Shown: positions 41,138 through 64,000 of the stretch, piece by piece
Numbering within the stretch: the stretch's first letter is position 1
Layout: each line of letters begins with the position of its first letter
Assembly: GCA_016708025.1 (NCBI GenBank)
Contig: JADJGQ010000003.1
Location: forward strand, 448,457 to 512,456
DNA: 64,000 bases
DNA from: a bacterium
GTDB lineage: Bacteria > Zixibacteria > MSB-5A5 > GN15 > FEB-12
Direction: 5' to 3'
Made by a program: the position numbers and the translations under genes
The notes under the pieces: model-generated
Database searches by the model: none
What the model was told of the DNA's origin: nothing
What the model saw: the letters and a program-made list of their open reading frames with translations, nothing else

Positions 41138-41171
41138 TAGAAGTTCAAACTATTTCAGAAAAAACGCACCT

Positions 41172-42328: not shown

Positions 42329-42812
42329 ATGAACTTCAAGATGAATGAACACGCAGATGCCTTCTGGAGAGAATTTCTGGCAACTCTCCCCCCGGACCAT
42401 CACGCCCACTCGCGTCCGATCCCGGTCGCCGAAGGATTCGGTGACAATCCGGAACTTGCCGAAGAACTTGGGCAGTTGATCCATCAGGGGATCAAGACCG
42501 CCACCTGTGCCTCCCTGTGGGAACACGAATTGGAGGGATTGCCGATCCCCCAGGCGGGCCAGTACGAGATAGTCCTGGATGGTCAGAACCGGCCGCTCGC
42601 GGTCTACCTCCTGACTGAGGTGACAATCCGCCCCTTTTGACGAAGTGGATGCTTCCTTTGCATTTGAGGAAGGCGAGGGGGACCGTTCATTAGAGACTTG
42701 GCGCGAAGGGCACTGGCGGTTCTTTGGCCGCATCCTTAAGCCGCTTGGCCTCGAGGCTGACCCCAAAATGCCACTGATCTGCCAACGATTCCAAGTCGTC
42801 CATAAACGATAA
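42329..42812 (+). pseudogene. ASCH-domain protein interrupted by one frameshift
   Basis: Frame 1 ends ...LLTEVTIRPF* at 42640. The next frame, from 42639, continues DEVDASFAFEEGEGDRSLETWREGHWRFF...HKR*, which is the expected ASCH continuation. The break falls at the CCCCTTTT run (42631-42638). Confidence 0.75.
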
Positions 42813-43049
42813 AATCGGTCTATTAGTCACCCGGACAGATCAATCCACTGTTTTTGGGGGCGGCTCCGGCCGCCCAACAGATTTCGCTGCTTCGGATGCA
42901 ACATTTTGTTTCCCGGCTCGTCATTGCTAGTGAGATACCTGAAGACTCATTACGTTTGGCCGGCGCCCCTCTTTTTCAAGGTGGGGCAGGACCTCCCGGC
43001 CCGACTTGCACCGAAACAGATTCATAGGCAGTCGATCATGTACGCTTGA

Positions 43050-45351
43050 TTGACCAGGAGTGGCATCATGCGATCGATCTATGCCTTGCGGGGAACTTCC
43101 CTGGCTGGTCTGCTCATTATTGCGCTGTTCTCATCATCCCCTTCAATGGCAACATCTCTCACCGCGACAAGTTTCTCGCCGGAATTGGCGCTGAAATCCG
43201 CCACCGCTGAGATCAAAGTCGATGGCCGCATCAGTGATAGCGGATGGCAGCATGCCTCAGTGATCGATCAATTTGTGGAGATCCGACCGGGGAACAATAC
43301 CGCACCCGCAGTCGAGACCAAAGTATGGGCGACCTATGATGACCATGGCATCTATGTTGCGTTTCTCTGCAAAGATGATCCCAACAGCATTCGCTCCACT
43401 CTCTGCCAGCGCGACCAGACGACCAGCGACGACATGGTGATGATCGCCCTCGACACCTACGGCAACGGGACCTGGGCCTACGAACTGATGGTTAACCCGC
43501 ACGGGGTCCAGCGCGATCAACTCTGGTCGGTCTCTGCGCAGACCGATATCGGTTTCGATCTTGGTCTGGGAGTCCGCCGCTATGCGAACTGATTCCGGCT
43601 ATCAGGTGGAGATAGCGATCCCGTTTGCCAGCCTGCGCTTCCCCGACAGCGATCAACAATCCTGGCGGATCGACTTCCGCCGCGTTCGCCCCCGCGACAC
43701 GTACATGCAGTACGCCTGGTCGGCGGTCGATCGCAATCAGCAATGCTATCCTTGCCAGTTCGGGACGATCAGCGGAATCGAAAATGTCAATCCCGGTCGT
43801 GGGATCGAATTGCTTCCGGCGTTTGTTGGATATCGCACCGGCGAGCGTCTCTCAAGCGAATCTTTTCAGGAGCATGACCCCAAGGGCTCAATGTCACTGA
43901 CCGGTAAGTATACCACCACATCGGATATCACGATTGAGGCCGCGATCAATCCCGACTTCAGCCAGATCGAATCGGATGCCGGTCAGATCGATGTCAATTC
44001 AACTGTCGCCCTGCTCTACCCGGAGCGACGTCCCTTCTTTAATGAAGGGAGTGACATCTTCCAGACGCTCTTTAATTCATTCTATACACGCACAGTCGCC
44101 GATCCATCGTTTGCGGCCAAGATCACCGGTCGGCTACCCAAAACTCGCTTTGGACTTCTGAGCGCTGTCGATGAAAACTCTCCGTATCTCATTCCTGTCG
44201 GTGAATTCAGCCTGCCCACTTTGAACAGCGGTCGAAGCTATGTTAATGTGCTCCGTGGCACACAGACTTTGGGGAGTGGCTCTCAGATAGGGCTGATGCT
44301 GACTGACCGGCGATTCCGCCACGATGGCTCCGGCAATATCCTTTCAGGTGACTATGTCCTTCGCCTTGGGCAGAAGTATGTTATCGATGGTCAGTACCTG
44401 ATGAGCCACACGGCCGAAATGAATGAACCGACACTGACTGAGCGCTTCAACGGCATTACCTTCGATCATGGGAAATATACGGTCGATTTCGATGGCGAGT
44501 CATATTGGGGGACCGCATTCATACAGCGGATTGGACGTTACTCCGAGCACTGGAATCTGACGCTCGACTACAATCAGGTCAGTCCCAGCTATCGCACTCA
44601 CACCGGGTACGACCCCGTTAATGACCATCGAAGCAGCTCCATCTATGGTTCGGTGACAGCCCGTCCCAAGGGCGGGATCATTGAGACTTTTCAGCCCGGG
44701 GGATTTGTCTTTCGACGGTTCAACTTTGACGGCGACCGCCTGAATGAAACCAATGCCCTCAATTGCTTCGTGGGATTCCGGTTCGCGCAGTCCTCGATCT
44801 TCATGGCTTACCGCGACATATTTGAGTCTTTTGCCGGATACGACATTGACGGTCTGTATACGCTGGTTGGACAGTTCTCCGCCCGACCGCATAGTCGTCT
44901 ATCGACCTCGGTGGAGGTTTACTCCGGCACTGCCGTGACTCACTTCCTGCCCGTTCCGGAAAAGGCGAACGAATTGACGGCCGTGCTCGGCCTCAATTTC
45001 AAACCGATCGACCGGCTGACGATTGAATCAAACACAACCTATTACTCGATCTCCGATCGCGCAGCCGACACGGCATACTTTGATGGATATATCTCACGAG
45101 CGCGTATTCAGTATCAGTTCGCCAAAGAGTTGTCGATCCGACTGGTGGCTCAGTATGACGACTTTGGCCGGGTTTGGTCGGTCGATCCGCTGCTGACCTA
45201 CCGTCTCAGTCCATTCTCAGTTTTTTATGCCGGTTCAACGATGGACTATCAGGATTGGCCGGATCTCCCCAACGATCCGAATAGCCCCAGCGCATGGCGG
45301 CTGGCGCAGCGTCAATTTTTCCTGAAACTGCAGTATCTGTTTCAGGTCTAG
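43050..45351 (+). pseudogene. CBM9-like / DUF5916-type outer-membrane-associated protein interrupted by one frameshift
   Basis: IKVDGRISDSGWQHA...YDDHGIYVAFLC...DDMVMIALDTYGNGTWAYELMVNPHGVQRD ends out of frame. Frame +1 from 43561 continues VWESAAMRTDSGYQVEIAIPFASLRFP. The two ORFs together give about 770 aa. Confidence 0.7.
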
Positions 45352-45464
45352 CGTATTCTCCCACCCTCCGCCGCCCGTCAGCCCGATGGTGTAACCCACC
45401 TCGGGACCGGGCGGCGGACTCCAATTAAACCTTCTCGTCGCCCTTCTTTTGGGCGAATCCTCCG

Positions 45465-45481
45465 CAATAGTCGGACTATTG
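45465..45481. promoter_or_regulatory. Perfect 8-1-8 palindrome (candidate operator) upstream of the porin/symporter pair
   Basis: CAATAGTC-G-GACTATTG, flanked by direct repeats GAATCCTCC[G/A]CAAT. A possible promoter is TTGACT (45509-45514), 17 nt, GATATT (45532-45537). Confidence 0.35.
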
Positions 45482-45568
45482 ACGAATCCTCCACAATCAT
45501 GGTTCATCTTGACTCTGTTCGGTAATTGCCTGATATTGTCGCTTCAGGTAACGTAGGGACATTTTGCT

Positions 45569-46882
45569 ATGAACAGACATCTTGCATTTTTCTTGCTCTT
45601 GTTTCTGGTGATCTCTTCAAGTCTTGTCGAGGCCGCAGATTCAACCTCAATAGTAAAGGTCGGCGTCACGCTCCGCAGTCGTATCGAAACGACTGATTAT
45701 GCCACCAATCTTGGTTTCAATACCTCGCACTTTCCGATTTCCGGGACAAGTTACTATCGTCAACGTACTGGCCTGATGGTCCAAGTCATGCCAATTCCGA
45801 AGTACGAGTTGGGGATCAGGCTGACCAATGAATTCCGGCGCTACTTTGCCCCTACCGGCACAAAACGTACTTATGATGAAGTGGTCTTTGACCAGTTGTA
45901 TGTCAAAGGAGACAGCATTGGTGGACTGCCGCTAGCTGCAACTATCGGCCGCCAGAACATTACGCTTGGCGAAGGGTTCTTGTTCGCAGAGGGTGGTCCT
46001 CTCGATGGTTCTCGCACGGCCTATTTCAACGCGGTCAATCTGGCCTGGCAATTTTCTGCAAAGAGCACTATGCGTGTGATTTTCGCCAATCAGCAGAAAG
46101 ATGATGACATCCTTCCGGTGATCCATGACCAGCACAAGGGACTCACAGAGGGAGATGAAAAGTCCGCACTAGTCTATTTCAATACTTCGCTCGGCACTAT
46201 CAAGCTCGAGCCATATCTGATGCAGATGGAGCGTAATGCATCGAGCAAGCTCCCCCATGCCGGAATTGGATGCATCGGCCTTCGCGCCCAGGCACCAATC
46301 ACGCCGCAGATCACGATCACGGGTGAACTGGCCAAACAGTTCGGTGATTGGGGAGATCAGGATCACACAGCACTGGGTGGCTACGGCTATTTCGAGTGCA
46401 AAACCAACTGGCCACTCTATTTCCCATCGATTTTTACTGTGGGAGGCGTTTACCTCACCGGCGATGACGAGTCGACCGCAAAACATGAAGGATGGGATCC
46501 GCTCTTTGGCCGCTGGCCGAAGTGGTCCGAGTCGTATGTCTATACACTCACCAATGAGACGGGTGTTGCCTACTGGAGCAATTTTGCTTCATTGTTTCTG
46601 AAAACCTCCGCCCCGATCGGATCCGATCTGATCGCCACGATGGAGTACCATTACCTCATGGCGGACGAATGTCCAACGCAAGCGATGCGTTGGAGTTACT
46701 CAGTCTTCGCCGATGCGGTTGGCACCTCTCGCGGGGACCTGACTATTATGAAACTGAGTTACCGGATCAAGCCACGCCTGACAGGGCACATCTTGTATGA
46801 GCATTTTGACCCGGAATCATTTTATGCAGACTTCGCCAAGTCTTCCTCCTGGATGCGGATGGAAGTGATGTTGACTTTCTAA
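45569..46882 (+). CDS. Putative outer-membrane porin-like beta-barrel, family unassigned
   Basis: Signal peptide FLLLFLVISSSLVEA, beta-strand periodicity, and the ending ...RMEVMLTF. It lies 16 nt upstream of the symporter gene. Confidence 0.55.
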   Translation: MNRHLAFFLLLFLVISSSLVEAADSTSIVKVGVTLRSRIETTDYATNLGFNTSHFPISGTSYYRQRTGLMVQVMPIPKYELGIRLTNEFRRYFAPTGTKRTYDEVVFDQLYVKGDSIGGLPLAATIGRQNITLGEGFLFAEGGPLDGSRTAYFNAVNLAWQFSAKSTMRVIFANQQKDDDILPVIHDQHKGLTEGDEKSALVYFNTSLGTIKLEPYLMQMERNASSKLPHAGIGCIGLRAQAPITPQITITGELAKQFGDWGDQDHTALGGYGYFECKTNWPLYFPSIFTVGGVYLTGDDESTAKHEGWDPLFGRWPKWSESYVYTLTNETGVAYWSNFASLFLKTSAPIGSDLIATMEYHYLMADECPTQAMRWSYSVFADAVGTSRGDLTIMKLSYRIKPRLTGHILYEHFDPESFYADFAKSSSWMRMEVMLTF

Positions 46883-46898
46883 CGTCTGGATATCGACT

Positions 46899-48349
46899 AT
46901 GCTCGCAAAACTGATCATAATTTCGCTCTTTGGCCTGATGATCATTGTTATCGGGATCATCGGGATGCGACGGACCAAGACATTTTCGGATTATTTTCTC
47001 GGCGGCGGGACGATCGGACCATTCATGACCGCATTCACCTACGGCGCGGCTTACTTCTCGGCGGTGCTGTTCATCGGTTTTGCCGGAAAGGTTGGCTGGG
47101 ATTTCGGCCTCTCCGGTCTTTGGGTCGGAATCGGCAACGCCGTTGTCGGAGTACTAGGCGTCTGGTGGATCATGGGATGGCGAATCAAACAGATGTCAAC
47201 CACGTATGGTGTCGACACGATGCCGGAATTCTTCGAAAAGCGGTTCCACAGCCCGGCGTTGAAACTGTACAGTTCGATTGCCATTTTTGTTTTCTTTGTC
47301 CCGTATTCAGCCGCGGTCTTTATTGGACTGACCTACCTCTTTCAAGTGAATTTCGGCATAGACTTCGGCCTGGCTCTTCTCTTCATGGGGATCTTCACTG
47401 CGCTCTACCTGGTCATGGGCGGATATAAGTCGATGACTATGATCGACGTCATTTTTGGGATCATCATGGCTATCGGTACGGTTGTACTCCTGGCGACAAC
47501 ACTGGATAAGACCGGCGGGTTCAGTATGCTCAAGACCGATCTGAGCGCAATACATCCAAAACTGATCGACCCGGTTGGCCCTCCCGGACTCTGGCCGCTC
47601 TTTTCGCTCGTCTTCCTGACTTCAGTGGCGCCGTTCGCCATGCCGCAATTGGTGCAGAAGTTTTATGCGATCAAAGATCAACGCTCGATCCATATCGGGA
47701 TGGTAGCGTCAACGCTGTTTGCGCTCTTGATCGGCGGCGTTGCTTATTTTTCCGGCGCAACCTGCCGCGTGTTGATGTCTCCGGAATCTTCTCCCTCTGC
47801 ATTCAGTAACGGCAAACCTATCTTCGATGCACTCATGCCCGAGCTGCTGGCCAATATCATTCCGCAGTCGCTCTCTATTCTGATGTTGCTGTTGATCCTG
47901 TCGGCCTCTATGTCCACGCTGGCGGCACTGGTTCTGATCTCCAGTTCATCGGTCGCCAAGGATGTCTATGCCGGCTTCATTAATAAGAAGGTTACCGATA
48001 GACAACTGACCATGCTGATGCGAATCTGTTCTGCCGTCTTCGTATTGCTTTCGGTGGTCCTGGCCTACTTCAAGCCAGCATCCATCGTGGCTATTCTGGG
48101 AATTTCGTGGGGAGCGATAGGCTCGGCGTTTTTGGGACCGTTCGTTTGGGGTCTTCTCTGGAAACGGACCTCCAAACTGGCGGCGATCACATCATCGGTG
48201 GTCAGCCTGGCGCTCTGCGTCGGGCTGTATATTAGTGGGACCCCTCACCGCAGGCAGGGACGATCGGAATGCTCGCCTCCCTTATCTCTGCTCCGTTGAT
48301 CAGCCTGGTTCTGCCCGACCGGCAGGCTGCGTCCGCGCAGAACCGATAG
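46899..48349 (+). pseudogene. Sodium:solute symporter (SSS) family transporter with a frameshift near the 3' end
   Basis: Multi-TM SSS-like sequence. After ...GLYIS (about 48236) the track frame reads GTPHRRQGRSECS*. The frame starting at 48239 instead reads DPSPQAGTIGMLASLISAPLISLVLPDRQAASAQNR*, a plausible last TM helix. Confidence 0.75.
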
Positions 48350-48413
48350 CGCGGTTCACTCCTCTGCTACTCTATACTATAATAGAGGAGCGGTCCAGAA
48401 AACCGGACTACTG

Positions 48414-48758
48414 TCAGTCCTTTTCTTCGGCGTAGCCGCTGAGCACCCGATTGACGTGGGAGCAAACATTGTCACACAACGAAAAGACCCTCGGATTGGC
48501 AATAGAATAGAGGACGAAAGACCCCTGTTTCGTCTTTTTGACCATACCGGCGCGGGCAAGGATCCCGAGGTGACGGGAGATATTCGGCTGGGTCCAGTCG
48601 AACAGCGCGACCAGATCCTGTACCGATTTTTCCCCGGACTTCAAGGCCCGCAGGAGTTTAAGCCGGGTCGGGTCGGACAATGCCTGGAAGCATCCGGCGA
48701 CCAGTTCGAGCATTTGCTCGGGCATCTGCGAAAAATCTGTTGCTTTTTTTGTTGGCAC
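48414..48758 (-). CDS. ArsR/SmtB-family transcriptional regulator
   Basis: FQALSDPTRLKLLRALKSGEKSVQDLVALFDWTQPNISRHLGILARAGMV. Divergent from the efflux genes. Confidence 0.85.
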   Translation of the reverse strand: MPTKKATDFSQMPEQMLELVAGCFQALSDPTRLKLLRALKSGEKSVQDLVALFDWTQPNISRHLGILARAGMVKKTKQGSFVLYSIANPRVFSLCDNVCSHVNRVLSGYAEEKD

Positions 48759-48778
48759 ATTTATATATAACTATATGT
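48757..48778. promoter_or_regulatory. AT-rich imperfect palindrome, candidate ArsR operator
   Basis: ACATTTATATATAACTATATGT (ACAT...ATGT ends) in the divergent region between the ArsR and MFP genes. Confidence 0.35.
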
Positions 48779-48831
48779 TTATCTGTTTGTCAAGAGCCGA
48801 CAAAAAAAAAGTTGACCATAAAGGAAGAGGT

Positions 48832-49827
48832 ATGAGAACAACCCTGTTACTTTCCGGATTGCTGCTCGCCGCGGCGCTCACCGGATGTAGTTCCAGCGAA
48901 CAGACGGCGAATACCGCAACCGGAACCCCCAAGCCGGTCAGCGCGGTCAAAGCGGATCGTCTGACGACCGGCGCGCATGACGAGATCATGGGGACAGTCC
49001 GCGCCCGCAACACCGCCGACCTGAGCACCAAGGTTCAGGCGCGCATCGACCGGATCCCGGTAGTGATCGGCAGTCGGGTAAACAGAGGCGGCACACTGGC
49101 CGAACTGGATACCCGCGAATTCAAGGCCCGCGTTCAGCAGGCGCGCGCCGTGAAGGAGCAAGCCGATCTGGATCTGACCCGCTACACGTCGCTATTGGAC
49201 AAAGATGCCGTCACCAAGCAGGAGTTTGACGCAGTCAAGGCGCGGGCATCGGTAGCAGAAGCGAATCTCGATGAAGCCGAAGCGCTCATGAGCTACGCGA
49301 CAATCACCGCCCCCTTCTCCGGAGTCGTGACACGCAAGATGGTTGATGTCGGCGATTTGGCGATACCCGGCCAGCCGCTTTTCACTCTCGAGGAAGAATC
49401 AGCGCCGCAGTTTGTGGTCACCATTCCGGAATCACAGCGCACTAAGATCGCTATCGGCGATCAGGTGCAGGTAGAAATATCATCGCTGGACACCGCCATC
49501 ACCGGCACGGTGAAGGAGCTCTCCCCCAGCGCAGACCCGGTGACCCGGTCGTTTATCGTGAAGATCGATCTTCCAGCCTCGATCGCGCGCCCCGGCCAAT
49601 TCGGTCGGTTGCTTCTTTCTGTCGGAGGGGATGAGTCGATCTACATTCCCAGCGCGGCGCTGGTTCGTCTTAATGCGGAGAATGTCGCGGTGCTTAAGTT
49701 TGTCCGAACTGGACGTTCCCTTGGCGACAAGATCGAGATTCTTGCCGGACTGGAGAGCCACGACCTGGTCGTGACCCGTGGATTGACCGGTCTAGTCGAT
49801 GGCGACAAAGTTGAGGTCCAGCCATGA
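48832..49827 (+). CDS. RND efflux periplasmic adaptor (membrane fusion protein), lipoprotein
   Basis: ATG at 48832 after GGAAGAGG. Lipobox AALTGC. Typical hairpin and lipoyl motifs ([14 protein letters not shown]..., [10 protein letters not shown]). ATGA overlap with the permease. Confidence 0.85.
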
Positions 49828-52800
49828 GCCAGGAACATCACACAGTTCCGGCCCACGGCCTCGCTGGCATGCTGGCGAAGGGGTTCATTAATTCCAAACT
49901 GACCCCACTGCTTATTTTAACTTCAGTACTGCTTGGCGCATTTGCGGTGGCGATGCTCCCCCGCGAAGAAGAACCGCAGATCAAAGTGCCGATGGTTGAC
50001 GTCATGGTTTCGGTCCCCGGCTTCACCGCCAAGGAAGTCGAAAACCGCGTCACCGCTCCCATGGAGAAACTGATCTGGGAGATTCCCGGAGTTGAATATG
50101 TCTACTCCATCTCCCGCCCCGAAGAAGCGCTGGTGATCGTGCGTTATCTCGTCGGTGAGGATGTCGAGAAGAGCCTGGTCAAGCTGAACCAGAAACTCCA
50201 ATCGAACTTCGACAAGATCCCGCCGAATGTTTCTTTCCCACTGCTGAAGCCCCGCTCGATCGATGATGTCCCGATCCTTGCGATGACCTTCCATAGCGCG
50301 GAACTGGATCATTACTCGCTCCGGCGCGTGGTCGCCGAGGTCGAGGATCAGATCAAGCAGGTGCGCGATGTCTCAGAGACAAACATAATCGGCGGACTCC
50401 GCCGTCAATACCGGATTCAGCTCGACCCGGAAGCGCTCGCCGCGCGGCAACTTGACCCGTTACAGATCATCCCGGTGCTCCGTCAGGCAAATCGCCAGAA
50501 CAAGGCCGGGTCGCTGGTATACAACAATCAGGAAGTGGTAATCGAGACCGGCGGATTTATCCGCTCGAAAGAGGATGCCGAAAAGGTTGTCCTCGGGGTC
50601 TATAACAACTCCCCGATCTACCTTCGCGATGTCGCCAAGATCATCGATGGTCCGGAGGAGCTGAATCAGGTTGTTTTGTTTGGTTCGGGAGCCGCGATCG
50701 GCCCGCATCACGAGGAGGAAGCGGCGGTCACGCTTTCAATTGCCAAGCGTCCAGGGACCAATGCGATCCAGGTCGCCGAACATGTTCTGGAGAAAGTCCA
50801 TTTCCTCGAAGGAAAAGTGATCCCGTCGAATGTTGATATGACGATCACCCGCCACTATGGCGAAACAGCCGAAGAGAAATCGAACGAGCTGCTATTCCAT
50901 ATGATGATCGCGGTTTTTTCCGTGTCGTTGCTCATCCTGCTGGCCCTGGGATGGCGCGAATCGATCATCGTAGCGCTGGCGATACCATCAACTCTCGCGC
51001 TCACTCTTCTTGTATTTTATCTTGCCGGATTTACGCTCAATCGTATTACGCTTTTCGCGCTGATCTTCTCAATCGGTATTCTGGTGGATGATGCGATCGT
51101 GGTGGTGGAGAATATCACCAGGCACTTGCATCTTGCGCAGAACAAGGGGCGACATTGGGCGAAGATCGCGATCGATGCCGTCTCCGAGGTAGGCAATCCC
51201 ACTATCCTTGCCACCTGGGCGGTGATCGCGGCAGTGTTGCCGATGGCGTTTGTCGGCGGACTGATGGGGCCATACATGCGGCCGATCCCGATCGGCGCGA
51301 CCGCGGCAATGCTCTTCTCGCTGGTGGTCGCATTTATCGTGACGCCATGGGCGGCAGTGCGTGTACTCAAATGGGGAAAATCGAAAGAGCATATCATTCA
51401 TGATGCATCCAATGAGGATTGGTCAACGCGCGCATATCGCCGTCAGATGACCAAACTGATCACCAAGCCGAAAACCCGAATGATCTACCTGACCACTATC
51501 ACCGTGCTGTTGGTTGGAGCGATGGCGCTTGTCGGCATCGGCTGGGTGCAGGTGAAGATGCTCCCGTTCGACAACAAAAACGAATTCCAGGTTATCATTA
51601 ATATGCCGGAGGGGAGTTCGCTCGAAGAGACTGTCCAGGCCTCTCGCGAGATCGCCGGAGCAATCGCCAAAGAGTCCGAGGTAACGGATTACCAGATCTA
51701 TGCGGGGAATGCATCGCCATTCAATTTTAACGGTCTGGTGCGGCATTACTTCATGCGGCGCGGCTCTTATTCTGCGGATATCCAGGTCAACCTGGTCGGG
51801 AAGGGTGAGCGGTCTGACCAGTCGCACGATATCGCCAAGCGGGTACGCCCGCGCGTGGATGATATCGCGAAGAAGTATCGCGCGGCGGTGGCGATCGCCG
51901 AGGTACCACCCGGCCCGCCGGTCTTACAGACTCTGGTAGCGGAGATCTATGGACCGACTGATTCCACCCGCACCGCGCTTTCGCGCAAGGTCGAGGAGAT
52001 CTTCAAATCGACGCCCGGCGTGGTTGATGTTGACGCCTACGAAGAGATGGATCAGCCAAAACTGACTTTCACGATCGATCATGAAAAAGCGGCGCTCCAC
52101 GGCATCACCGCCGGAGATGATCGGCCAGTCGGTGAAACTTGCGGTCCAGCGGGATACAGGTCGACATCGGACATCGCGACAATGAGCGCGAAGATGTCGC
52201 GTTAATACTGGAACTCCCCCGCGCGCAGAAAACCTCCGCGGCGGATATTCTCGGCCTGCAGATACGGATGCCGAACACGGTTCAGTCGGCGAATGCCGCC
52301 GATGCACCGCTGGTGCCGCTGCGAGAACTGGTGACGGTAATTGATACGATTGCGGAGAAAACAATCTATCGGAAAAACCTTATGCCGGTGACATATATCA
52401 TCGGCGATGTCGCGGGTGAGATCGAGTCGCCGGTGTACGCCATCATGGATATGAACAAAAAGCTGGAGAAGCTTGAGATGATCCAGTATGGCGGGACAGA
52501 GAATAAGCTGCAGATTCTCAATGCGAGTATGCCGTTCTCCACTCTCGAGCCCGCACTTAAGTGGGATGGTGAGTGGCATATCACGATAGAGGTCTTCCGC
52601 GATCTGGGGATCGCATTCGCCGCAGTACTGATCCTGATCTATATTCTGATGGTGGGATGGTTCCAGTCGCTGTTGACGCCGATCATCGTGATGGCGGCGA
52701 TTCCGTTCTCGCTCATTGGGATCATGCCGGCGCATGGCGCGATGGGGGCGTTTTTCACGGCAACCTCGATGATCGGATTTATGGCGGGGGCGGGAATTGT

Positions 52801-53083
52801 CATACGAAACTCAATCATTCTGGTCGATTTCATTGAGCTTCGTCTAAAGGAAGGGATGCCGCTGGCGGAAGCGGTGATCGATGCCGGCGCGGTGCGGTTC
52901 CGTCCGATGTTGCTCACGGCCGGCGCAGTGATTGTCGGTGCAGGAGTGATTTTGTTCGACCCGATCTTCCAGGGTCTGGCGATCGCATTGATGGCGGGCG
53001 AGGTCGCCTCGCTGTTGATCAGCCGTGTGGCGGTCCCGATTCTGTATTATGTCGGGCATAAGAAGCAGTATCCTGTGGCGTAA
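49824..53083 (+). pseudogene. RND (AcrB/CzcA-type) inner-membrane efflux permease interrupted by frameshift(s) near 52105-52165
   Basis: The 793-aa and 314-aa ORFs are the N- and C-terminal parts of one roughly 1080-aa RND permease. No outer-membrane factor gene lies adjacent. Confidence 0.85.
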
Positions 53084-53186
53084 AATGTATGCCCTTCGAC
53101 TTCGCTCAGGGCGACGATTATAGTACTTGAAGAGATCAGATGGCGGGTTCGGAAACGGACTCGCCTTTCTTATGCTCATCGCTCCC

Positions 53187-53582: not shown

Positions 53583-54795
53583 ATGGGTAATCGAACAAAG
53601 AGCGCCAATTCAGAATTTAGGCTTGCAATTACTGAACAAGATGTCTTTCGAGCTAGAATTGCTGGCGAACTTGTGAAGCGTCGTAAACGTCCGACGTTGA
53701 TAGACTTGTTCGCTGGAGCGGGGGATGACGCTCGGCTTCACCAAGGGACTCGGGCACTGTTTTGAGCCGGTGTGGGCAAATGATATTGATGAGGCTTCCG
53801 TTACAACCTACCACTTGAATTTTGACTGCCACTGTGTGTCAGGAGACCTTATAGATATTTTGGCTGCCAGGAGTTACAAGATTCCTCATGCAGACGTGGT
53901 CATTGGAGGGCCACCATGCCAAGGGTTCAGCCTGCTTAACAAGAATCGGGACGGTGATCCGAGGAAGCAACTATGGAGACCGTTTCTTGATGTAGTCAAG
54001 CACTCTAAGGCAAAGCTGTTTGTCATGGAAAACGTCCCGCAGTTGCTTGGTACACCAGAGCATACAGAGATTCTTGGTTATGCCAAGAAACTAGGTTTTC
54101 AGACCGAGTCGCGTGTATTATGCGCAGCAGACTATGGAGTATCCCAGAAGCGGTATCGCGCCTTCATTATTGGGTGTTCATTTGCAGATCCGAGGATCTC
54201 CTTCCCGCCTAAGAAATCGCATTATAACCCTTGTAATGGCAGCACTCTTGATTTATTAGAATCGAATGGTGCATTTTTGACAAATCCCCAAAAATGGAGG
54301 ACAGTCAGAGATGCAATAGCGGATCTTCCACAGCCAACAGGTACCGAAATAGCTGCAGTAGCGCCACCATTCGACCTTCATTTCGGCAGGACGCCGACTC
54401 AGAAGTCCCTTCAAAGATATCGTGCAATTCCAGAAGAAGGAATGAACAGGTTCGACCTACAACGACGCGCCCTTAAATTGACTCCAGATTGCTGGATAAG
54501 GAAGACTTCCGGCGGGACTGACCTGTTTGGGCGCTTATGGTGGGATAAACCCGCTTTAACTATTCGAACAGAATTCTTCAAGCCAGAAAAAGGTCGGTAC
54601 CTTCATCCGTGTGAACATCGGCCGATTACGCACAGGGAAGCGGCGCGCCTGCAGAGTTTTCCAGATGATTTTCTATTCCACGGTTCAAAGACTCAAATCG
54701 CAAAACAGATCGGCAACGCAGTTCCTCCAATGTTAGCTGCTCGAGTCGCAGACTGCGTTTTTTCTCTTTGGCTCTCTCAGGAACAAGCTACATGA
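53583..54795 (+). pseudogene. DNA (cytosine-5)-methyltransferase, frameshifted inside motif I
   Basis: LIDLFAGAG is followed out of frame by MTLGF; the expected sequence is FAGAGGMTLGF. Downstream motifs are intact: GGPPCQGFS, ENV (FVMENVPQL), QKRYRAF, GNAVPP. Confidence 0.85.
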
Positions 54796-55202
54796 GCGAC
54801 GTTTTTTCTAGTAAGAAGCGCAGCGAGATAATGTCGCTTGTGAAGGGGCGCGATACAACACCCGAAAGAATAGTAAGATCACTCCTTCATCGAAATGGAT
54901 ATCGCTTTTCTGTTCATCGGTCGGACCTACCCGGAAGACCCGATATAGTTCTAACAAGACATCGTACTGTTGTATTTGTAAATGGCTGTTTCTGGCATGA
55001 CCACAAAGGATGCAAAAGAGCAAGTAAACCACAAAGTAATAGATTGTTCTGGATGGAGAAAATTGAATCTACTAGGATGCGGGATCAACGGAATGGCAGA
55101 TTATTGCGAAAATTGGGTTGGCGTGTTTTGACCGTATGGGAATGTGAAACCAAGCGCGACAACTTCCTGGCATCAAAGATTCGGAATTATTTCCAACGAT
55201 AG
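54792..55202 (+). CDS. vsr: Very-short-patch repair endonuclease
   Basis: KKRSEIMSLVKGRDTTPE...GRPDIVLTRHRTVVFVNGCFWHDHKGC...WRVLTVWECE. ATGA overlap with the methyltransferase stop. Confidence 0.9.
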   Translation: MSDVFSSKKRSEIMSLVKGRDTTPERIVRSLLHRNGYRFSVHRSDLPGRPDIVLTRHRTVVFVNGCFWHDHKGCKRASKPQSNRLFWMEKIESTRMRDQRNGRLLRKLGWRVLTVWECETKRDNFLASKIRNYFQR

Positions 55203-55215
55203 GCGGACAAAAACA

Positions 55216-56154: not shown

Positions 56155-57232
56155 TCCCCCCTACTTCCGCACCTAGCGTGTACTGGCCGTACATGTCCTT
56201 GGCGTAGTCCATCTCTTTATCCCAGCCGAAGTACTTCCCCATCTCGCGGGCAGGTTCGGTATCATCGACGTTATACCCCAACACCGTAAAGCCGGTCTTT
56301 TCGAGCAGCTCCTGCGTAAACGGGCAGCGGCCATCGGACCACGGCACATATTTCTCGTCCGGCCCGCTCAGTTTCGGATGGAGATTGTAGATCATGAAAT
56401 ATCCCCCCGGCTTAAGCAGATCGTAGATAGTTTTCACATAGGCGGAATCAGTGACCCCCAACTGCACCAGCATGCGCGGGTCAACCTCGCGCTCCGGATG
56501 AATGTACCCATGCTTGAGCGTGTTCTTGGAAATAAACAGATCGTAGCCCTCGCCGACAATGGCGCGCGTCGCGCTGTCTGCGGGGAATGAACCGAACGCG
56601 AGCGTGAGGTGTCCCGGCGCTCCCTCCCCTGCCACACGCGCACGCGCGATATAGCCGGCATCGGCAGGCTGCGCATAGAGCAGTTTGAGAAGCGGGTCAA
56701 CTTCGATACCGGTGACATTCGCGCCGCAGGAGGCCATCAGGCGGAGATGGCCGATCGAACCGAAGCCGTAGTCGGCAATACGGGCGGAATCCAATTTTGC
56801 CAGGCCGGCTATGCCGACGAGGTCGAGCGCGCGGGCGAAGGCGAGCGGTGTGCCATAGCGGGTGAAGTAGTAGAACTCTTCGCCGACATCGCGTCTTTCG
56901 TAGCCTTCAATGGATTGCTTCGTCGCTTCGCTCCTCGCAATGACATTGGACGTGTCTGTGGCTTTTTTGTATTCAGCTTCGGACATGTATGAGCGGGTCG
57001 TTTTGTTGACATAAACGACGCGGGATTCGATCGACGGTAGATCGGGGACCGCCGCGAGGAATTGTTTGGCGATGGGTGAAGTGACGAAAGTCGCAAGCGT
57101 GTCCGCCTGGAGATTCAGCACTTCGAGTGCGGTGAGGGTGTCGCCGGTGGTGTCGGTCTGGGCGACGGATGATCCGGCGAGGGTGGCGCTGATGAGAAGC
57201 GCGATTGCAAAGATGGTGCGAAGGTGGCGCAT
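56102..57232 (-). CDS. Exported class I SAM-dependent methyltransferase-like protein, with its C-terminal 17 codons read from islet DNA
   Basis: Start moved to the ATG at 57232 (MRHLRTIFAIALLISATLAGSSVAQ signal peptide). Motif I-like IADYGFGSIGHL...VTGIEVD; YDLFISKNTL; LKPGGYFMIYN. Confidence 0.6.
   Translation of the reverse strand: MRHLRTIFAIALLISATLAGSSVAQTDTTGDTLTALEVLNLQADTLATFVTSPIAKQFLAAVPDLPSIESRVVYVNKTTRSYMSEAEYKKATDTSNVIARSEATKQSIEGYERRDVGEEFYYFTRYGTPLAFARALDLVGIAGLAKLDSARIADYGFGSIGHLRLMASCGANVTGIEVDPLLKLLYAQPADAGYIARARVAGEGAPGHLTLAFGSFPADSATRAIVGEGYDLFISKNTLKHGYIHPEREVDPRMLVQLGVTDSAYVKTIYDLLKPGGYFMIYNLHPKLSGPDEKYVPWSDGRCPFTQELLEKTGFTVLGYNVDDTEPAREMGKYFGWDKEMDYAKDMYGQYTLGAEVGGTIDVSCESDRDRRYIIQ
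56912..56944. repeat. Short palindromic element copy A (inside the CDS, in frame)
   Basis: GGATTGCTTCGTCGCTTCGCTCCTCGCAATGAC, translated on the minus strand as VIARSEATKQSI. Confidence 0.7.
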
Positions 57233-57583: not shown

Positions 57584-59657
57584 TTACGGACAATTGGGCA
57601 AGGTCGGGCGTGGTACCTGCGTCAGATAGGCTATCAAGAGCGACAGATCAGACAGGTCGATAGAGCCTGTGGTGTTGACGTTCGCTTCCGGCAGGCATGG
57701 CAGGACCGGACGCGGAACAATTGTCAGATAGCTGATGAGCAGAGAGAGATCCGACAGGTCAGGCGTTTCAATAACGCCATCGTTCACATTGCCGGTGGTG
57801 CCAACACAGCAACTGACTGTCTGGCAGGAATCGCCGACACCATCGCCATCAGAATCCTCCTGCAACGGATTGTATTTGTTGGGGCAATTGTCGCACAGAT
57901 CGCCGATCAGATCGAAATCGACATCAGACTGCGTTGGATTTGAGACAGTCGGGCAGTTGTCACAGATCGCCAACTCCATCCAGGTCGCCATCAAGCTGAG
58001 TCGGATTCGAGATGGTCGGGCAATTGTCGCAGGCATCACCAAAGGTGTCGGCATCGGTATCGAGCTGATTGTTGTTCGTTACCGCTCTGCAGTTGTCGCA
58101 GGCATCGCCAAGCGTGTCGAGATCGGAGTTGACCTGCGAGGGATTGGGCGTGAAGTCGCAATTATCGAGCGAATCGATAATGCCGTCATTGTCTGTGTCA
58201 CAGGCGAAAACATTCTCAAAGATGACATCCTGATCGACACCATTGCGGCCATCGTTCCAGACGATGCCGAAGGGATTGATCAGGTTGAAATCCGAATCGA
58301 AATAGGACCCGATGTATTGTCCCAAAGGACGCGGAATGGTGCTAACCGGTGGGAATGGACCATTGCGCGTGAGTATGCAATCCTGAAACGTAACGCCACA
58401 GTCGCGCGAGATGGATGACCAGATCTCGACGGCGTTGTTGGCCAGGTCATTGCGACGGTCGTTGTAGCTGACTATCACCGCGCCGGTGTTGCGGTCGAGA
58501 GTGATCGTCGGCGCCCATTGATCGCGTCCATTACCAACCGGGTCCTGATTGACGCGCATCGGCGGGAGGAATGATCCGGGAGCTCCGCCAGCCGGACTGA
58601 CGGTCATCCAGATATCGATATCGGTTCCGGTCGGACCGGGAGCATCCCAGACAATATAGACATAACTGGGACATCCGCCGGCAACACCTTGTCAATCGCG
58701 AGGTCAACCGTATTGGCGACTTCGATTCCCGGAGCGAGTGTGGGAGGTACAGGAAGAATTCCACCGGTAATGATTGCGGCAGGGACCATGGCGCACCGCC
58801 GGTAGGAGTCGGGTTCCAAGACATCACGATGTTACCTGCCAGAATGTCGCGCCAGATACAGTAAGTCGCGCCGGGAGGGAGAAATCCTGTTCCGGCTGGG
58901 CCGGCAAAATCGAGGGCTGGCTTATGTCCTGCAGATACGCGCCATGCGGCATGCCCGGCATGACTGGGGCGGGCCGAGAAAGTGCCGGATAGGGGAAAGG
59001 TCCGCCAAAAGCAGATTTGTGGAGGAGGACCAGATAGCGGCAAGGTCGGCAGGATCATTGTAGAAGTTCAAGTCTCCGTTGGGTCGCCATCGATGTCGGT
59101 GGATTGCACCCAGGCATAAGTAGCCTCACCCATCATTGGAACGGGGATACCAGGGACATCAACAATGGAAGAGCTGGGTAGTCGAACCATTGATTGATTG
59201 CCGGGCTGATACTGATCGGAAAAAGGTGCGGCGAACGGTGCGCCACCGCCAAGACTTCAGACATGTAGACCGCGTTTCCGATCGGCGTGAATTGCTGTCC
59301 CTGGTCCAAAGGCAGTGCCGCCCATCATGAATCCACCACCTGGAGCAGAGCCAAGTGAAGGGTTCCAGTCGCTGGATAGGGGGCGGCGCGGTCACACCCA
59401 TTGGCAGCCAGGAACCAGAAGCGCCGAAAGCCGGTGACCATGCCCAGTCAATCGTCACCGCCTGGAAAAAGGCCTGGCAAATGATTGTTGTAAAGGTGTA
59501 GATCTCTCCCGGTTTGATCTCGTTCCAGGAGACTGCTGTGTTGTTTTGTTCGGACCCGGGTGGATGTCCGGAGCCACGGGTGAGTTAGCCATGACACTGA
59601 ACCCAGGAAGCAGATGATCGCGGCAACTCTGCTGAATGAGAGAATCAGGCGAACCAT
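57584..59657 (-). pseudogene. Secreted BNR/sialidase-like protein with thrombospondin type 3 repeats and a twin dockerin-like C-terminal tail, broken by at least five frame changes
   Basis: Recognisable pieces lie in all three minus frames. They are a signal peptide (MVRLILSFSRVAAIICFLGSVS), [13 protein letters not shown] (BNR), repeated D.D.D..GD.CDNCP..(S/Y)NP.Q, and [12 protein letters not shown]...[13 protein letters not shown]...[14 protein letters not shown]. Confidence 0.7.
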
Positions 59658-59941
59658 TTTTCACCTCCATGAGATGAACGCCGGTTGGGGAACCGGTGAA
59701 GGTTGAAGATACATCTGTATATCAGAAGACTCAGTTCATGGTCGCCGGAACGATCAATGCAAAAAATGCACGGAAGTGATCCGGTGAAGCTTTCGATGGT
59801 GTATTGAGCGCTTAAAATGGAGTGGTGAAATAGTGACGACGGAGCTTGGCGAAACTTTTACCTGATCAGTCATTCACTCCAGACATAACGTAGCGTACCA
59901 TGTCTTCGTTTGCAAGGAGAAAATGAGTGAGACGAGGAGAA

Positions 59942-60834
59942 TCAACTAACAGAACCTGACTTACTCTTGTTCGGGAGTTGGATACCCGACAGGGCTAAGC
60001 CGATGACAATACATGCGCCGCCGATGCCACTGTGCATGGTGAACTGCTCTCCCAACTGTCCAGGCCGCCGCCGCCGCTCGAATACCGGCTCCAGTGCAAA
60101 GATAAGTGACACACGGAGTGGTGACGTGGCGCTGAGCAAACATCTGGATGACAAAAGGCAGAAAGTGTCGGAAAGAGGGCGAGAAAAATGATCGCACTCC
60201 AGGCAGCATTGGTGGTGACATCGAAAGAGCGCCCGGTGATTGCGGTCATGGCAATACTGCCCAGGCCAACCAATAGAAACTGCTGACAACTGATGGCGAT
60301 AGGATCGACACCCGCCTTGATGTACTTATCGGAAAGCAACAAGTGCAGGGCGTAGGCCATCGAAGCGACGATCGTCAGCAGGTCGCCGATGTTGACTTCT
60401 TTCAGGCCGCCGGTGAGTATCCAAAGACCGACCAGCGATATGACCGAGGCGATGATCTCCATCAAAGTGGGGCGACGCCTGAAGAGGGTCACGAGAAAAA
60501 CCGGCACCCAGAGAACAAACAGGCCGGTGATAAAGCCGGAGTTTGAGGCGGTGGTGTAATTCAGACCGACTGTCTGCGTGACATAAAGTGTCCAAAGAAC
60601 AACGGCAAGAAAGAGACCTTGGCGAATATTCGGGAGAACCGGTTTACGTTTGATCAGGAGATAGCCCAACAACAGGCCACCGGCGATCAGAAAACGATAG
60701 CCGACCATAGTCACGGCATCGACGCCGGTCAGCGCTGATTTGACAATGACAAAGGTCGTTCCCCAGATAAGGGCGGCATAGAATAGTCCGGTGTCGGACC
60801 AAAACTGTAGTCGTCGAGAGGGGGATTGATTCAT
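59942..60834 (-). pseudogene. EamA/DMT-family transporter with several frame changes in its last 250 bp or so
   Basis: The sequence is intact through ...IIFLALFPTLSAF. The expected continuation (..VIQMFAQRHV.., SLIFALEPVF, AAAAAW, LGEQFTMHSGIGGACIVIGLAL) is then scattered over three frames. Confidence 0.8.
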
Positions 60835-60868
60835 TGGCGTAACTTACTTCAGACAGAGAGGCGCAGCG

Positions 60869-61246
60869 CTACCGTGGTTTCCTGCGTGGGATCTTTTGGT
60901 TGAAGGCGCAGATTTCTTCTTCATGGAGCCACGGCGATTTTGGCTGCCATTGGAATTTCAGGTCAATACGGTCGCGGAAACCCAAAGTAGATCCCTTCGC
61001 TTTCGAGTAGACTGTGCTGGACTTCGTACCCTTCACCCGGCGGAGCGAGATCTTCCCTTCGCGATTAATAACGCGGAACCAGGGGAGTTTCTCGGATTCG
61101 GAGCAGCCATGTAGCACCCACCCGACAGACCGTGGGTCACGAGGATTGCCGGCCATTGCGGCGACCTGACCGTAGGTAGCAACCTTTCCGCGCGGGATCT
61201 TGCGGATCACCTGACAGATCGCTTTGACGACAGGAGATTTCGTCAC
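60869..61246 (-). CDS. Alkyltransferase-like (ATL/YbaZ-type) MGMT-family DNA-binding protein
   Basis: IPRGKVATYGQVAAMAGNPRDPRSVG...LPWFRVINREGKISL, with Trp in place of the MGMT active-site Cys. GTG start overlapping the upstream stop (GTGA). Confidence 0.75.
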   Translation of the reverse strand: MTKSPVVKAICQVIRKIPRGKVATYGQVAAMAGNPRDPRSVGWVLHGCSESEKLPWFRVINREGKISLRRVKGTKSSTVYSKAKGSTLGFRDRIDLKFQWQPKSPWLHEEEICAFNQKIPRRKPR

Positions 61247-62073
61247 CGCGATTTCTCTGTCAGATCGGTTGAAATGATCGGCGCGTAGATATCGGGGCGA
61301 CGGTCTACGAACAGATCGTTGCGGGGGTTGACCGCTTTGTCGCGCGACTCTCTCGGATCGATATCAACGGTGATCACCGCTTCTTCCCTCTCGGACCGGT
61401 GACAATGACATTTCCGCGGACATCGCAGACGACCGAAAGGCCGGTGAAGTTGAGGCCTCCTTCGGAACCGATCCGGTTGGCGGTCACGACCGCAACTCTG
61501 TTTGTCATGGCATGTATAGGTACAGCGCGCTGACATTTGCCTGGAATGACCAGATTGGCAGGATGGCAAATGATATCCGCGCCTTTGAGGGCAAGCAGGC
61601 GCCAGACTTCGCCAAACCACCAGTCGAAACAGATCAACATGCCGATGCGGACGCCATTCACCTCAAAGACGGGCGCGCCGAGATTGCCGGGCTGGAAAAA
61701 TCTTTTCGTTCAAATAGAGATGAAGTTTGCGATACTTGCCTATGACACCATCGCGAGTGAGCAGGATCGACGAGTTGTAGAGCTGTTTTCCATCGCGCTC
61801 GTTAAGGCCACTGACGATCGTGCAGTTATGCTGTCTGCAGAATGCATGGAGATAGCCGGTGAATGGGCCATCGATGACGGATTCAGAACTTGCCCACGCC
61901 TGTTCCTGCGAAGTGAAGTTGTATCCTGAATTGCAGAGTTCCGGCAGGACGACCAGATCTGAGCCGATCGCCTGAGGCATGAGACGGTCCAGGCTTTGCA
62001 GGGTGGCTTGCAGGTCGGCCAAAGCCGGTGCAAACTGAATGATAGTGATCCTCACAAGTATGCCCTCACGCAT
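61243..62073 (-). pseudogene. Carbon-nitrogen hydrolase (nitrilase superfamily) with two frameshifts
   Basis: LVVLPELCNSGY...KLHLYLNEK in frame 1. (NLGAPVFEVN)GVRIGMLICFDWWF...VTANRIGSEGGLNFTGLSVV in frame 2. EEAVITVDIDPRE...DRRPDIY in frame 3. Confidence 0.8.
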
Positions 62074-62243
62074 GGGGTGGTGCAGTTTCGACAGGCCCGA
62101 CTGGACTCAATGTCAGGTCGGTTTGGGCGTGAGGCAACCACTTTTTCGAAAGCCAAAATTGGACAAGTTTACCCACAACAAGTGACCCGGGGCTATGCGT
62201 ACCTAACAGGTGGCCCTGGTACGCAACCCGCAAGACACCTGGA

Positions 62244-64000
62244 GTGACCATGACTCGAATATTGATGGCAATTGCGTTGATCTCTCTGACCCTTCTCCCC
62301 CTTGAACTGACCTGGACCCGCATTTTCTCAGCAGAATTCTTCTATACCTTTGCGTTTCTTGTTCTTTCGCTGGCGATCCTGGGACTTGGATTGGGTGGTC
62401 TGATGTTGCGACTATGCAAGGCGGCGGATCGCGATCTGCTGTTAAGTCCTTATCTGGCAATCTCAGGGCTCTGCGCGCTGGTGGGGCCGATGCTGGTATT
62501 TCAATTGGGCCTCGATTTCTCGGCCCTCTTCGCCAGTATGGCAATGGTGGGAAAACTGCTGGTGACGGTTCTGATTCTGATGTCCGCGTTCTTTTTTGGC
62601 GGCATGGGGCTGGCCATGATCTTCAAGCGCCGTTCCGCAGAGATGCCCCACCTTTATATGGCAGATTTGATAGGCGCAGGGCTGGGACTGTTGGTTGGAC
62701 TCTGGGGAATGAATCAATTCGGCACTCCGGTCGCATCGGTACTGGTAGCCCTGCCTATTCTGATGGCCTCGTTTCTGCTTGCCGCCGGATGGATCCGGAT
62801 TCTCCCGGTAGTGTTGCGGTGGCGGTCTTTATCGTAGCTCCGGGGGGCGAACGGCGTCCCTCAACGGCCCCTCGACGGGAACATGCGCAGTGATCTACAC
62901 GCACTGGGATGCCGTCTCTAAATTGAAAATGTACGACTATGGTCCGGACTATCGCGGATTGAATATAGATAATGTCGCCAATTCGCCGGTAAATCGAGTC
63001 GACGGAAAATGGGAAGATATCAATCCTGATTCCGGTTGAGTGGGGATCGATGTCTCCTATTTGATACAGCAGTTTGATTCCTGCAGATTCCTTTCGCTGG
63101 GATCCGGCGGCGGCGGTGATGTTTTGCAGGCATTGGTGGAAGGTGCGACTGAGGTTCACGCGGTTGAGGTCAACCCGCACATCAACTGGATGATGCTGAA
63201 TGATGACACGACCGGTTACCACAAGGCGCCGTTCGTCCCCGATAGCAGTTGGAGCGTGGCACAGGTTGATTCAGCCAGAGCGGTGTATGATACGACACGG
63301 ATGCTTTTTCGGTTGCGGAGTTGCCGGGAATCTCTATCGCGATCCACGGTGACTGTTAGTAACCGAAGATGCGCGCTCATATGTCCGGAAATTCGGGGTA
63401 AAAAAAAAAAAAAAAGAAAAAGTTTGAGTGTCATCTACTCGCTCAGTTCGAATAGCTGGGCGGCTCTGGCATCAGGCGCGTTTGCCCTGGCAAAGAACTA
63501 TCTCTTACGACCGGGGCATTCGAGGATTTACTGGGAGGCTTTCCGACAGCGGCTTCCTGATGATGGAACATCAGGTATACACGCCGAGATTGGTATCAGA
63601 GGCATTGGCCGCGCTGGAGAACAGAGGTGCTCTCGGCGGAGCAAGCGGCATCTCTGACCCGTCGCGGCATATCGCGGTGTATGACTTGCCAAAATGCGGC
63701 GAAGATATTGCTTCTCTCGAAACGGCCGTTGACCGATTCACTTCGCTACTATGCGCTCCGGGCCGCTTACTCCGGAACGATTCGGCCAGATCCATCTGTT
63801 GTATCCTCCAGCGAACGAGTCATTGGCGAATAATCAAATCGCGCGGATCGTTAACGATGGCTGGCGAAAGCGCAGTTCACGAAGATAGATCTCTCCCCGT
63901 CTCCGACAACCGACCGTTTGTCGCGCAACTCGGGCTCTGGCGCAATTTGACCTCGGAGAATATGCAGAAGGTTTCAACTATGCCCGGAATTCTCCGGCTT
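62244..64000 (+). pseudogene. Spermidine-synthase-like membrane protein (multi-TM N-terminus plus methyltransferase fold), several frame changes, runs off the 3' edge
   Basis: TM region LELTWTRIFSAEFFYTFAFLVLSLAILGLGLGG. Then IYTHWDAVSKL, LSLGSGGGGDVLQALVEGATEVHAVEVNP, SWAALASGAFALAKNYL and ...DNRPFVAQLGLW appear in different frames. Confidence 0.65.
63400..63421. repeat. Homopolymer A16-G-A5
   Basis: Read directly: sixteen A (63400-63415), G (63416), five A (63417-63421), inside the spermidine-synthase-like gene. Confidence 0.95.

Follow-up and report, generated by a model that had tools for sequence, protein, structure and literature searches.

Beyond about 42 kb, a 64,000-nucleotide stretch of a Zixibacteria metagenome-assembled genome (MAG), called the window here, carries one interrupted gene after another. 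A preliminary description of the window, made from its letters and open reading frames (ORFs), had proposed that the indel load rises sharply at ~42 kb and is densest past 57.5 kb, and that the indels are either very recent or artifactual, naming a drop in coverage or quality, strain collapse, differently polished sequence, and real decay as possible causes. This raises the question of whether the segment is decaying in the organism or was left poorly corrected in the assembly. The comparison with related genomes indicates that the frame breaks are very probably residual consensus errors of a Nanopore R9.4.1 metagenome assembly and not gene decay, and the feature is almost certainly an artifact of little biological importance.

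Density of frame breaks along the window

Intact orthologs from syntenic Zixibacteria relatives (L081, L083, L085, L086, L087, and L088) were used as queries against the window with a custom-written, frameshift-aware protein-to-DNA aligner, which models ±1-nt events and codon gaps only, so that exact indel sizes are not fully resolved. The aligned coding DNA amounted to 18.9 kb in region A (16621-31586 and 36833-42202), 13.7 kb in region B (42341-57232), and 5.8 kb in region C (57587-63998). The positions of the events were reproduced by a second, independent reference set. A codon-usage frame plot, tried as a break counter, was too noisy and was dropped.

We found 46 frame breaks in the window, distributed over 11 genes (Table 1). 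Region A, with its 20 genes, showed no frameshift, even at a lax penalty, compared with 7 in region B (42.3-57.5 kb; 0.5 per kb) and at least 39 in region C (57.5-64 kb; 6.7 per kb, with patches of up to ~15 per kb). If the rates were equal, all 7 events of region B would fall in B rather than in A with a probability of 0.002, and the rates of regions C and B also differ (P = 1.6e-14). Events are unevenly spread inside region C itself (dispersion index of 2.5 in 500-bp bins versus a null 95th percentile of 1.6), where clean stretches of 0.7 to 1.1 kb lie between the dense patches. Rates of up to 15 per kb together with such clean gaps fit window-wise polishing; a strict 500-bp polishing grid is not evident in the event spacing, which shows significant patchiness only.

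The proposed asymmetry is thus borne out by a frameshift-aware scan of the window against close relatives, in which indel density was nonuniform. The accompanying claim that 0-42 kb is free of indels holds for the 18.9 kb aligned (16.6-31.6 and 36.8-42.2 kb); for 0-16.6 kb and 31.6-36.8 kb, where there is no close reference, it is based on uninterrupted, abutting long ORFs only. A scan of metagenome contigs with the 845-aa protein gave no syntenic relative covering 0-16 kb, and a scan of genome contigs with the RND permease gave only relatives of ≤78% identity, with L002 and L003 alone being useful.

Table 1. Broken genes and reference features of the window (event positions approximate where marked ~)
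Feature	Position	Strand	Frame breaks or remark
Clean control region	16621..42202	.	20 genes compared with L086/L083/L085 orthologs; 31.6-36.8 kb by intact long ORFs only
ASCH-domain gene	42341..42806	+	One +1 break, ~42632; L083 and L085 give the same position
CBM9/DUF5916 gene	43068..45348	+	One +1 break, ~43560
Sodium:solute symporter (SSF) gene	46899..48325	+	One -1 break, ~48247; L081 and L083 concordant
RND permease (ACR_tran) gene	49824..53080	+	+1 events, ~52113 and ~52147, 34 nt apart; L081 and L088 concordant
C5 DNA methyltransferase gene	53583..54786	+	One break, ~53721, adjoining a G5 run
SAM-methyltransferase-like gene (343 aa)	56164..57232	-	+1 event, ~56173, three codons ahead of the stop; missed by the preliminary description
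TSP_3-repeat protein gene	57587..59657	-	15 breaks, ~57965 and 14 in 58689-59614; single reference (L081)
EamA transporter gene	59945..60843	-	4 breaks within 104 bp (60053-60156); L081 and L087 concordant
ATL/DNA_binding_1 gene	60932..61246	-	Compensating pair, -1 at ~61044 and +1 at ~60989
CN_hydrolase (nitrilase-family) gene	61252..62055	-	2 breaks, ~61701 and ~61390
Spermidine-synthase-like membrane protein gene	62250..64000 (cut at window end)	+	14 called breaks (62812-63983) and a hidden compensating pair, ~63351/63361
A16 homopolymer	63400..63415	+	Inside the spermidine-synthase-like ORF; GAAAAC in both relatives

In the sparse region, every break that had been suspected from the letters (in the ASCH, CBM9/DUF5916, symporter, and C5-methyltransferase genes, and two in the RND permease) was recovered against orthologs. 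The event at ~56173 removes the stop codon of the methyltransferase-like gene and gives the protein a false 24-aa C-terminal extension, also present in GenBank entry MBK7143048; the relatives terminate in QYTLVRK (window, CTAGGTGCGGAAGTAG; relatives, CTGGTGAGGAAGTAG). The CBM9/DUF5916 protein is represented in GenBank by its 589-aa C-terminal part only (MBK7143042). A low-GC Dcm-Vsr-HNH module also lies within the affected segment, and its Dcm/HNH ancestry is mosaic.

For the dense region, the preliminary description had predicted at least 5 breaks in the BNR/TSP3 gene, about 4 in the EamA gene, 2 in the nitrilase-family gene, and several in the spermidine-synthase-like gene. All are present, and the ortholog-based count is higher than the earlier one. 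The compensating pair that it had suspected in the ATL gene was confirmed; the ORF stays open with ~18 codons out of frame. The repeats of the TSP_3 protein are ~47 aa shorter than in the L081 ortholog, and this slot is variable between lineages. The L081 ortholog of the spermidine-synthase-like protein scores 21.9 bits against Pfam Spermine_synth (cutoff, 22.9), and the A16 tract inside this gene is the longest homopolymer of the window.

Indels without other signs of gene decay

Real and recent pseudogenization of a dispensable 20-kb segment, with genes truly inactivated, would agree with the presence of the breaks in the deposited sequence, with the accessory-type genes of the segment, including the Dcm-Vsr-HNH module, and with the difference in the TSP_3 slot between lineages. 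Neighboring genes with multiple frameshifts are also seen in bacterial pseudogene clusters and decaying genomic islands. The character of the indels argues otherwise. All 46 breaks resolve as ±1-frame steps, and insertions are about as frequent as deletions (22:21 among the 43 events typed), whereas real bacterial pseudogenes show a deletion bias and mixed sizes. Fifteen independent hits in one gene and 16 in another are implausible without other decay. Substitutions in bacterial pseudogenes are expected to outnumber indels by about ten to one; at that ratio, 57.5-64 kb should contain ~15 to 20 stops. The frame-corrected alignments of the broken genes contained no genuine in-frame stop, in keeping with the earlier remark that such stops were few; the only ones in these alignments are at 63352, inside the compensating pair, and at 63401, in the A16 insertion (lax penalty only).

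The substitutions are those of genes under selection. Changes private to the window in the broken genes amounted to 0.091, 0.038, and 0.371 at codon positions 1, 2, and 3, respectively, a pattern shared with the branches of intact relatives (0.074/0.037/0.407 and 0.109/0.065/0.419). The codon-position pattern of purifying selection was therefore retained, so that these genes went through no phase of neutral evolution. An excess of private amino acid changes in the dense genes was considered as a sign of substitution errors or decay and rejected, since the codon-position analysis showed ordinary selected divergence. Moreover, the genes and their order are kept intact in three relatives. Unlike pseudogene clusters, the window thus combines balanced indels with an absence of nonsense mutations and of relaxed codon positions, and relatives carry the orthologous region unbroken and in synteny. 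We regard pseudogenization of the segment as very unlikely and real decay as effectively excluded as the cause of the breaks, so that the artifactual half of the initial alternative is the one that stands. A real, indel-specific mutational burst in a segment of 6 to 20 kb, by slippage-prone repair or targeted mutagenesis and too recent for substitutions to have accumulated, seems highly improbable as well.

Beyond the location of some events at short runs of T or A, nothing specific favors programmed or tolerated frameshifting (ribosomal or transcriptional slippage) of genes that are still expressed. The 46 events affect 11 unrelated genes, up to 16 times per gene and in both directions, the contexts listed share no slippery motif, and the orthologs need no frameshift. 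The probability of this explanation is negligible. Association with runs is modest overall: 35% of the events have a run of ≥4 within ±8 nt, versus 21% by chance (P = 0.035), and 14% have a run of ≥5 within that distance, versus 7% by chance (P = 0.07). Several inserted bases are located in T5 or G5 runs, and many events fall outside runs of ≥4. A link with methylation motifs was rejected, with 4 of the 46 indels near CCWGG versus 5% expected (P = 0.24).

Probable assembly provenance and residual long-read errors

Proteins of the window are 100% identical to GenBank entries MBK7143024, MBK7143042, and MBK7143048, which belong to a MAG with IPH75 locus tags and lie on a 513,391-bp contig; exact-protein look-ups with the window proteins and these GenBank twins gave no match in any other assembly. 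The supplementary data of Singleton et al. 2021 (PMC8012365) list a sister Zixibacteria MAG, JADJGC (MBK7092859, on an 875,181-bp contig); the IPH75 MAG itself was not found there. Accession proximity and naming point to an origin of the IPH75 MAG in the same Aalborg activated-sludge set, from which we infer that it went through the same pipeline. That study assembled Nanopore reads with CANU 1.8, using corMinCoverage=0, which permits very low-coverage paths, and polished with Racon, two rounds of medaka r941, and then Illumina Racon with --include-unpolished (PMC8012365). Frameshift-causing indels are documented to persist in R9.4.1 assemblies that have had no short-read polishing, above all where coverage is low (Sereika et al. 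2022, PMC9262707).

The breaks of the window resemble this class of error in that single-base indels split conserved genes, there is no excess of substitutions, there may be a partial bias toward homopolymers, and the source is a MAG, probably from a long-read assembly to which Racon, medaka, and Illumina Racon were applied. They differ from the usual R9.4.1 errors in being uneven along the window (clean for 42 kb, sparse for 15 kb, and then densely hit in patches where indels reach 1.5%) and in including an unusual 16-base A insertion. Many events lie outside long homopolymers, suggesting very low local read support and not the usual residual homopolymer errors. The contig would have been assembled from noisy long reads and then treated with long-read and short-read polishers, with short-read correction effective up to ~42 kb. 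Correction would have been partial from ~42.3 kb, leaving ~0.5 indels per kb, and from ~57.6 kb, patches look essentially uncorrected, with up to ~15 single-base indels per kb. The likely cause is that few or no reads support the sequence there, which could result from a local coverage dip, from a minor strain variant taken as the contig path, or from reads drawn to the contig of a sister strain.

A more specific form of artifact is a chimeric or mixed-strain assembly, in which the path would run from ~42 kb, and especially from ~57.6 kb, through a lower-abundance strain or a strain mixture; consensus and polishing would degrade once the path enters the minor strain or the collapsed mixture. 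Two step-like changes in rate (from 0 to 0.5 to 6.7 per kb), the patchiness of the events, and the corMinCoverage setting of the putative pipeline are consistent with it, and the variable TSP_3 locus and the mosaic Dcm/HNH module make strain variants in the sample plausible. However, gene order is continuous across both points of rate change in independently assembled relatives (L083, L081, and L087/L088): the same order extends over 36.8-50.3 kb in L083, from 46.9 kb to beyond 64 kb in L081, and, except for the variable TSP_3 slot, over 43-64 kb in L087 and L088. There is also no jump in divergence confined to the genes dense in breaks, apart from the variation seen from gene to gene. The frame-corrected identity to L081 of the broken genes in 57.5-64 kb (78-86%) overlaps that of genes nearer the clean part (76-94%). 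A mixture of strains would also leave the same signature in the window as a simple coverage dip. The chimeric join suggested in the preliminary description is thus not supported as a break in gene order; a join of near-identical strains at differing coverage may have occurred, and we keep the mixed-strain origin as a tentative and rather unlikely subtype of artifact.

Consequences for annotation

At least 11 genes of the window are miscalled in a public MAG classed as high quality, and at least two wrong proteins derived from indels have entered GenBank and downstream collections (MBK7143042, an N-truncated DUF5916 protein, and MBK7143048, with its false 24-residue tail). Inferring from this region the loss of RND efflux, of the solute symporter, of the polyamine-related protein, or of the EamA or nitrilase-family proteins would be wrong. 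The practical importance of the breaks is therefore real, and their biological importance is small. The error density of a hybrid-polished long-read MAG can vary more than 40-fold in one contig, so that genome-wide quality scores hide local problems of this kind.

Frameshift density along the window

The window belongs to a Zixibacteria-like MAG, and the nearest other organisms were Zixibacteria MAGs, with about 73 to 86% amino acid identity to the window proteins. Homologue look-ups by exact sequence led to syntenic stretches, five in all, in relatives whose genomes had been assembled independently; all genes in these stretches were intact. L081 (NCBI GCA_964503315.1) provided SSF, RND, Dcm, Vsr, HNH, methyltransferase-like, TSP_3, EamA, ATL, CN_hydrolase, a 793-aa protein, and OPT; L083 (GCA_041908405.1) and L085 (Logan) provided Fer4/CCG, epimerase, ASCH, CBM9/DUF5916, AlgE-like, SSF, and RND; L086 and L088 belong to a single JGI contig and L087 to another. 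Together they covered 16.6-31.6 kb and 36.8-64 kb of the window. Each reference protein was aligned to its own window region by local protein-to-DNA dynamic programming with explicit −1/+1 frameshift moves (BLOSUM62, frameshift penalty of 14).

The preliminary description had reported a sharp asymmetry in indel load and called for a frameshift-aware scan, which confirmed it: break density was not uniform and rose in two significant steps (P = 0.002 and P = 1.6e−14). No event was found in the 18.9 kb of coding DNA aligned at 16.6-31.6 and 36.8-42.2 kb (0 per kb, upper 95% bound of 0.16), seven were found in 13.7 kb aligned at 42.3-57.5 kb (0.51 per kb), and at least 39, all beyond 57.6 kb, in 5.8 kb aligned at 57.5-64 kb (6.7 per kb). 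Events in the last 6.4 kb were clustered (dispersion index of 2.5, null 95th percentile of 1.6), with patches of up to ~15 per kb separated by clean stretches of 0.7-1.1 kb. The break-free regions comprised 13 genes compared with L086 (16.6-31.6 kb) and 7 compared with L083 and L085 (36.8-42.2 kb), and at a penalty of 9 they remained clean except for one call at an alignment end, unsupported by a second reference. At 0-16.6 and 31.6-36.8 kb, which have no close references, cleanliness means uninterrupted ORFs only. In the ORF map, long abutting ORFs tile the first 42 kb; beyond 42.3 kb, numerous short ORFs on the same strand overlap one another in different frames.

Gene by gene, the breaks listed from the sequence alone proved correct or conservative, including the compensating pair suspected in ATL; at 42.3-57.5 kb all those listed were found, and the one in the 343-aa methyltransferase-like gene had been missed. 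With L087 and L088 as independent references, the same positions were obtained in the shared genes (spermidine-synthase-like, CN_hydrolase, ATL, EamA, Dcm, and RND). The AlgE-like, HTH_5, MFP, Vsr, and HNH genes within the affected span carried no breaks.

Frame breaks and other features of the window
Feature	Window position	Observation
ASCH	~42632	1 break
CBM9/DUF5916	~43560	1 break
SSF symporter	~48247	1 break
RND permease	~52113, ~52147	2 breaks
C5-methyltransferase (Dcm)	~53721	1 break
343-aa methyltransferase-like gene	~56173	1 break, three codons ahead of the stop; stop lost, 24 false residues gained
TSP_3-repeat gene	~57965; 58689-59614	15 breaks (one; fourteen)
EamA		4 breaks inside 104 bp
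ATL		−1/+1 pair 55 nt apart; ORF stays open
CN_hydrolase		2 breaks
Spermidine-synthase-like gene	~63351/63361 (pair)	14 breaks plus close compensating pair
A16 run	63400-63415	In spermidine-synthase-like ORF
MBK7143042	43561-45351	589 aa, N-truncated by indel; orthologues 756-760 aa
MBK7143048	56102-57340	376 aa, false 24-aa C-terminal extension from indel
CarboxypepD_reg-domain gene	227-5071	Large, intact, clean part; protein of at least 1614 aa
Ser/Thr protein kinase	31601-34246	Large, intact, 881 aa, clean part; fused to PD40/beta-propeller repeats
Cumulative G-C skew minimum	47000-51000	V-shaped
Dcm-Vsr-HNH module	53100-56200	GC of 0.47-0.50 (low)

Selection on the broken genes

Frame-corrected alignments contained no genuine in-frame stop. 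One apparent stop (63352) fell within 10 nt put out of frame by a pair of compensating indels, where DNA alignment to both relatives was far better with the indel pair than in frame; a second (63401) appeared only at a lax penalty, inside the A16 insertion. Window-private changes, counted at sites identical in the two relatives after masking of residues close to breaks, amounted in the broken genes to 0.091, 0.038, and 0.371 per site at codon positions 1, 2, and 3, respectively, compared with 0.074, 0.037, and 0.407 and 0.109, 0.065, and 0.419 on the intact relatives' own branches. This similarity indicates that the window lineage has been under purifying selection, without a neutral phase. 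A private amino acid excess was rejected as a separate signal, being ordinary divergence dominated by third positions.

In bacterial pseudogenes, a deletion bias and a spread of indel sizes are expected. The events observed here instead resolved as ±1-frame steps, with insertions about as frequent as deletions (22 and 21 among 43 typed). Real decay, in which the breaks would be true inactivations in a pseudogene cluster, is thus highly improbable: none of the defining features of such a cluster (nonsense mutations, relaxed selection, deletion bias) was found in the window, and 15 to 16 independent frameshifts in one gene without any other lesion are an implausible evolutionary state. Of the two initial readings, very recent or artefactual indels, the lack of stops and the purifying selection support the latter. 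The breaks very probably belong to the known class of artefacts of incompletely polished long-read consensus, from whose usual form the window differs only in the sharp density change within one contig.

Origin of the breaks and consequences

Homopolymer enrichment at the events was modest: runs of 4 or more lay within ±8 nt of 35% of events, against 21% by chance (P = 0.035), and runs of 5 or more near 14%, against 7% (P = 0.07). Several inserted bases fell in T5 or G5 runs that are shorter in the relatives. In place of the A16 run, both relatives have GAAAAC; the run far exceeds every other homopolymer in the window in length, an intergenic A9 at 48802 ranking second. No association of events with CCWGG sites was found.

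The accession block MBK714xxxx is near MBK7092859, a protein on the 875,181-bp contig of JADJGC, one of the Zixibacteria MAGs that Singleton et al. 2021 list in their supplement. We infer that the IPH75 MAG, for which no direct listing was found there, comes from the same submission. In that study, Nanopore reads were assembled by CANU 1.8 with corMinCoverage=0 and polished with Racon, twice with medaka (r941 model), and last with Illumina Racon using --include-unpolished (PMC8012365). R9.4.1 assemblies that have not been polished with short reads are documented to keep frameshift-causing indels, above all where coverage is low (PMC9262707), and the three-level pattern fits such residual indels. 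Short-read correction would have been good up to ~42 kb and weak from 42.3 kb, and the patches after 57.6 kb would have had very low support from both read types. Candidate causes are a local coverage dip, a contig path through a minor strain variant, or a sister-strain contig capturing reads in whole-metagenome mapping; lineage differences do exist at the TSP_3 slot and the Dcm/HNH module. A chimeric join, also suggested initially, was not supported as a gene-order chimera, since synteny is continuous in three relatives.

The biological interest of the breaks is low and their consequence practical, with at least 11 window genes miscalled. Three GenBank proteins (MBK7143024, MBK7143042, and MBK7143048, "MAG: ... 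IPH75_13275 / IPH75_13320 [bacterium]"), encoded on a 513,391-bp contig, are 100% identical to window proteins, and the last two are indel products already propagated into protein databases.

Other features

Reference gene order matched the window across both density change points, with two exceptions: L083 has an extra UbiE-type methyltransferase gene (7128-7805) between DUF5916 and AlgE-like, absent from the window (45351-45569), and in L087 an unrelated 249-aa gene (8955-9704) occupies the TSP_3 slot, a variable locus. Compared with its orthologue in L081 (7381-9612), the TSP_3 protein (window 57587-58100) lacks ~47 aa, equivalent to about two repeats, a shortfall that assembly collapse could also explain. 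No tRNA genes, nor Rfam families at gathering threshold, were found across the 64 kb.

Cumulative G-C skew was negative before its minimum and positive after, independently of gene strand, and the switch recurs at the orthologous RND operon of L081 (~14-17 kb) and L088 (~5.7-9 kb). This conserved strand-composition switch possibly lies in the neighborhood of an origin or a terminus of replication; a dnaA gene was not seen near it. The Dcm-Vsr-HNH module has mosaic ancestry, with Dcm closer to L087 (95.5% identity versus 76% to L081) and HNH closer to L081 (92.9% versus 62% to L087), which suggests that its parts were exchanged between Zixibacteria lineages.
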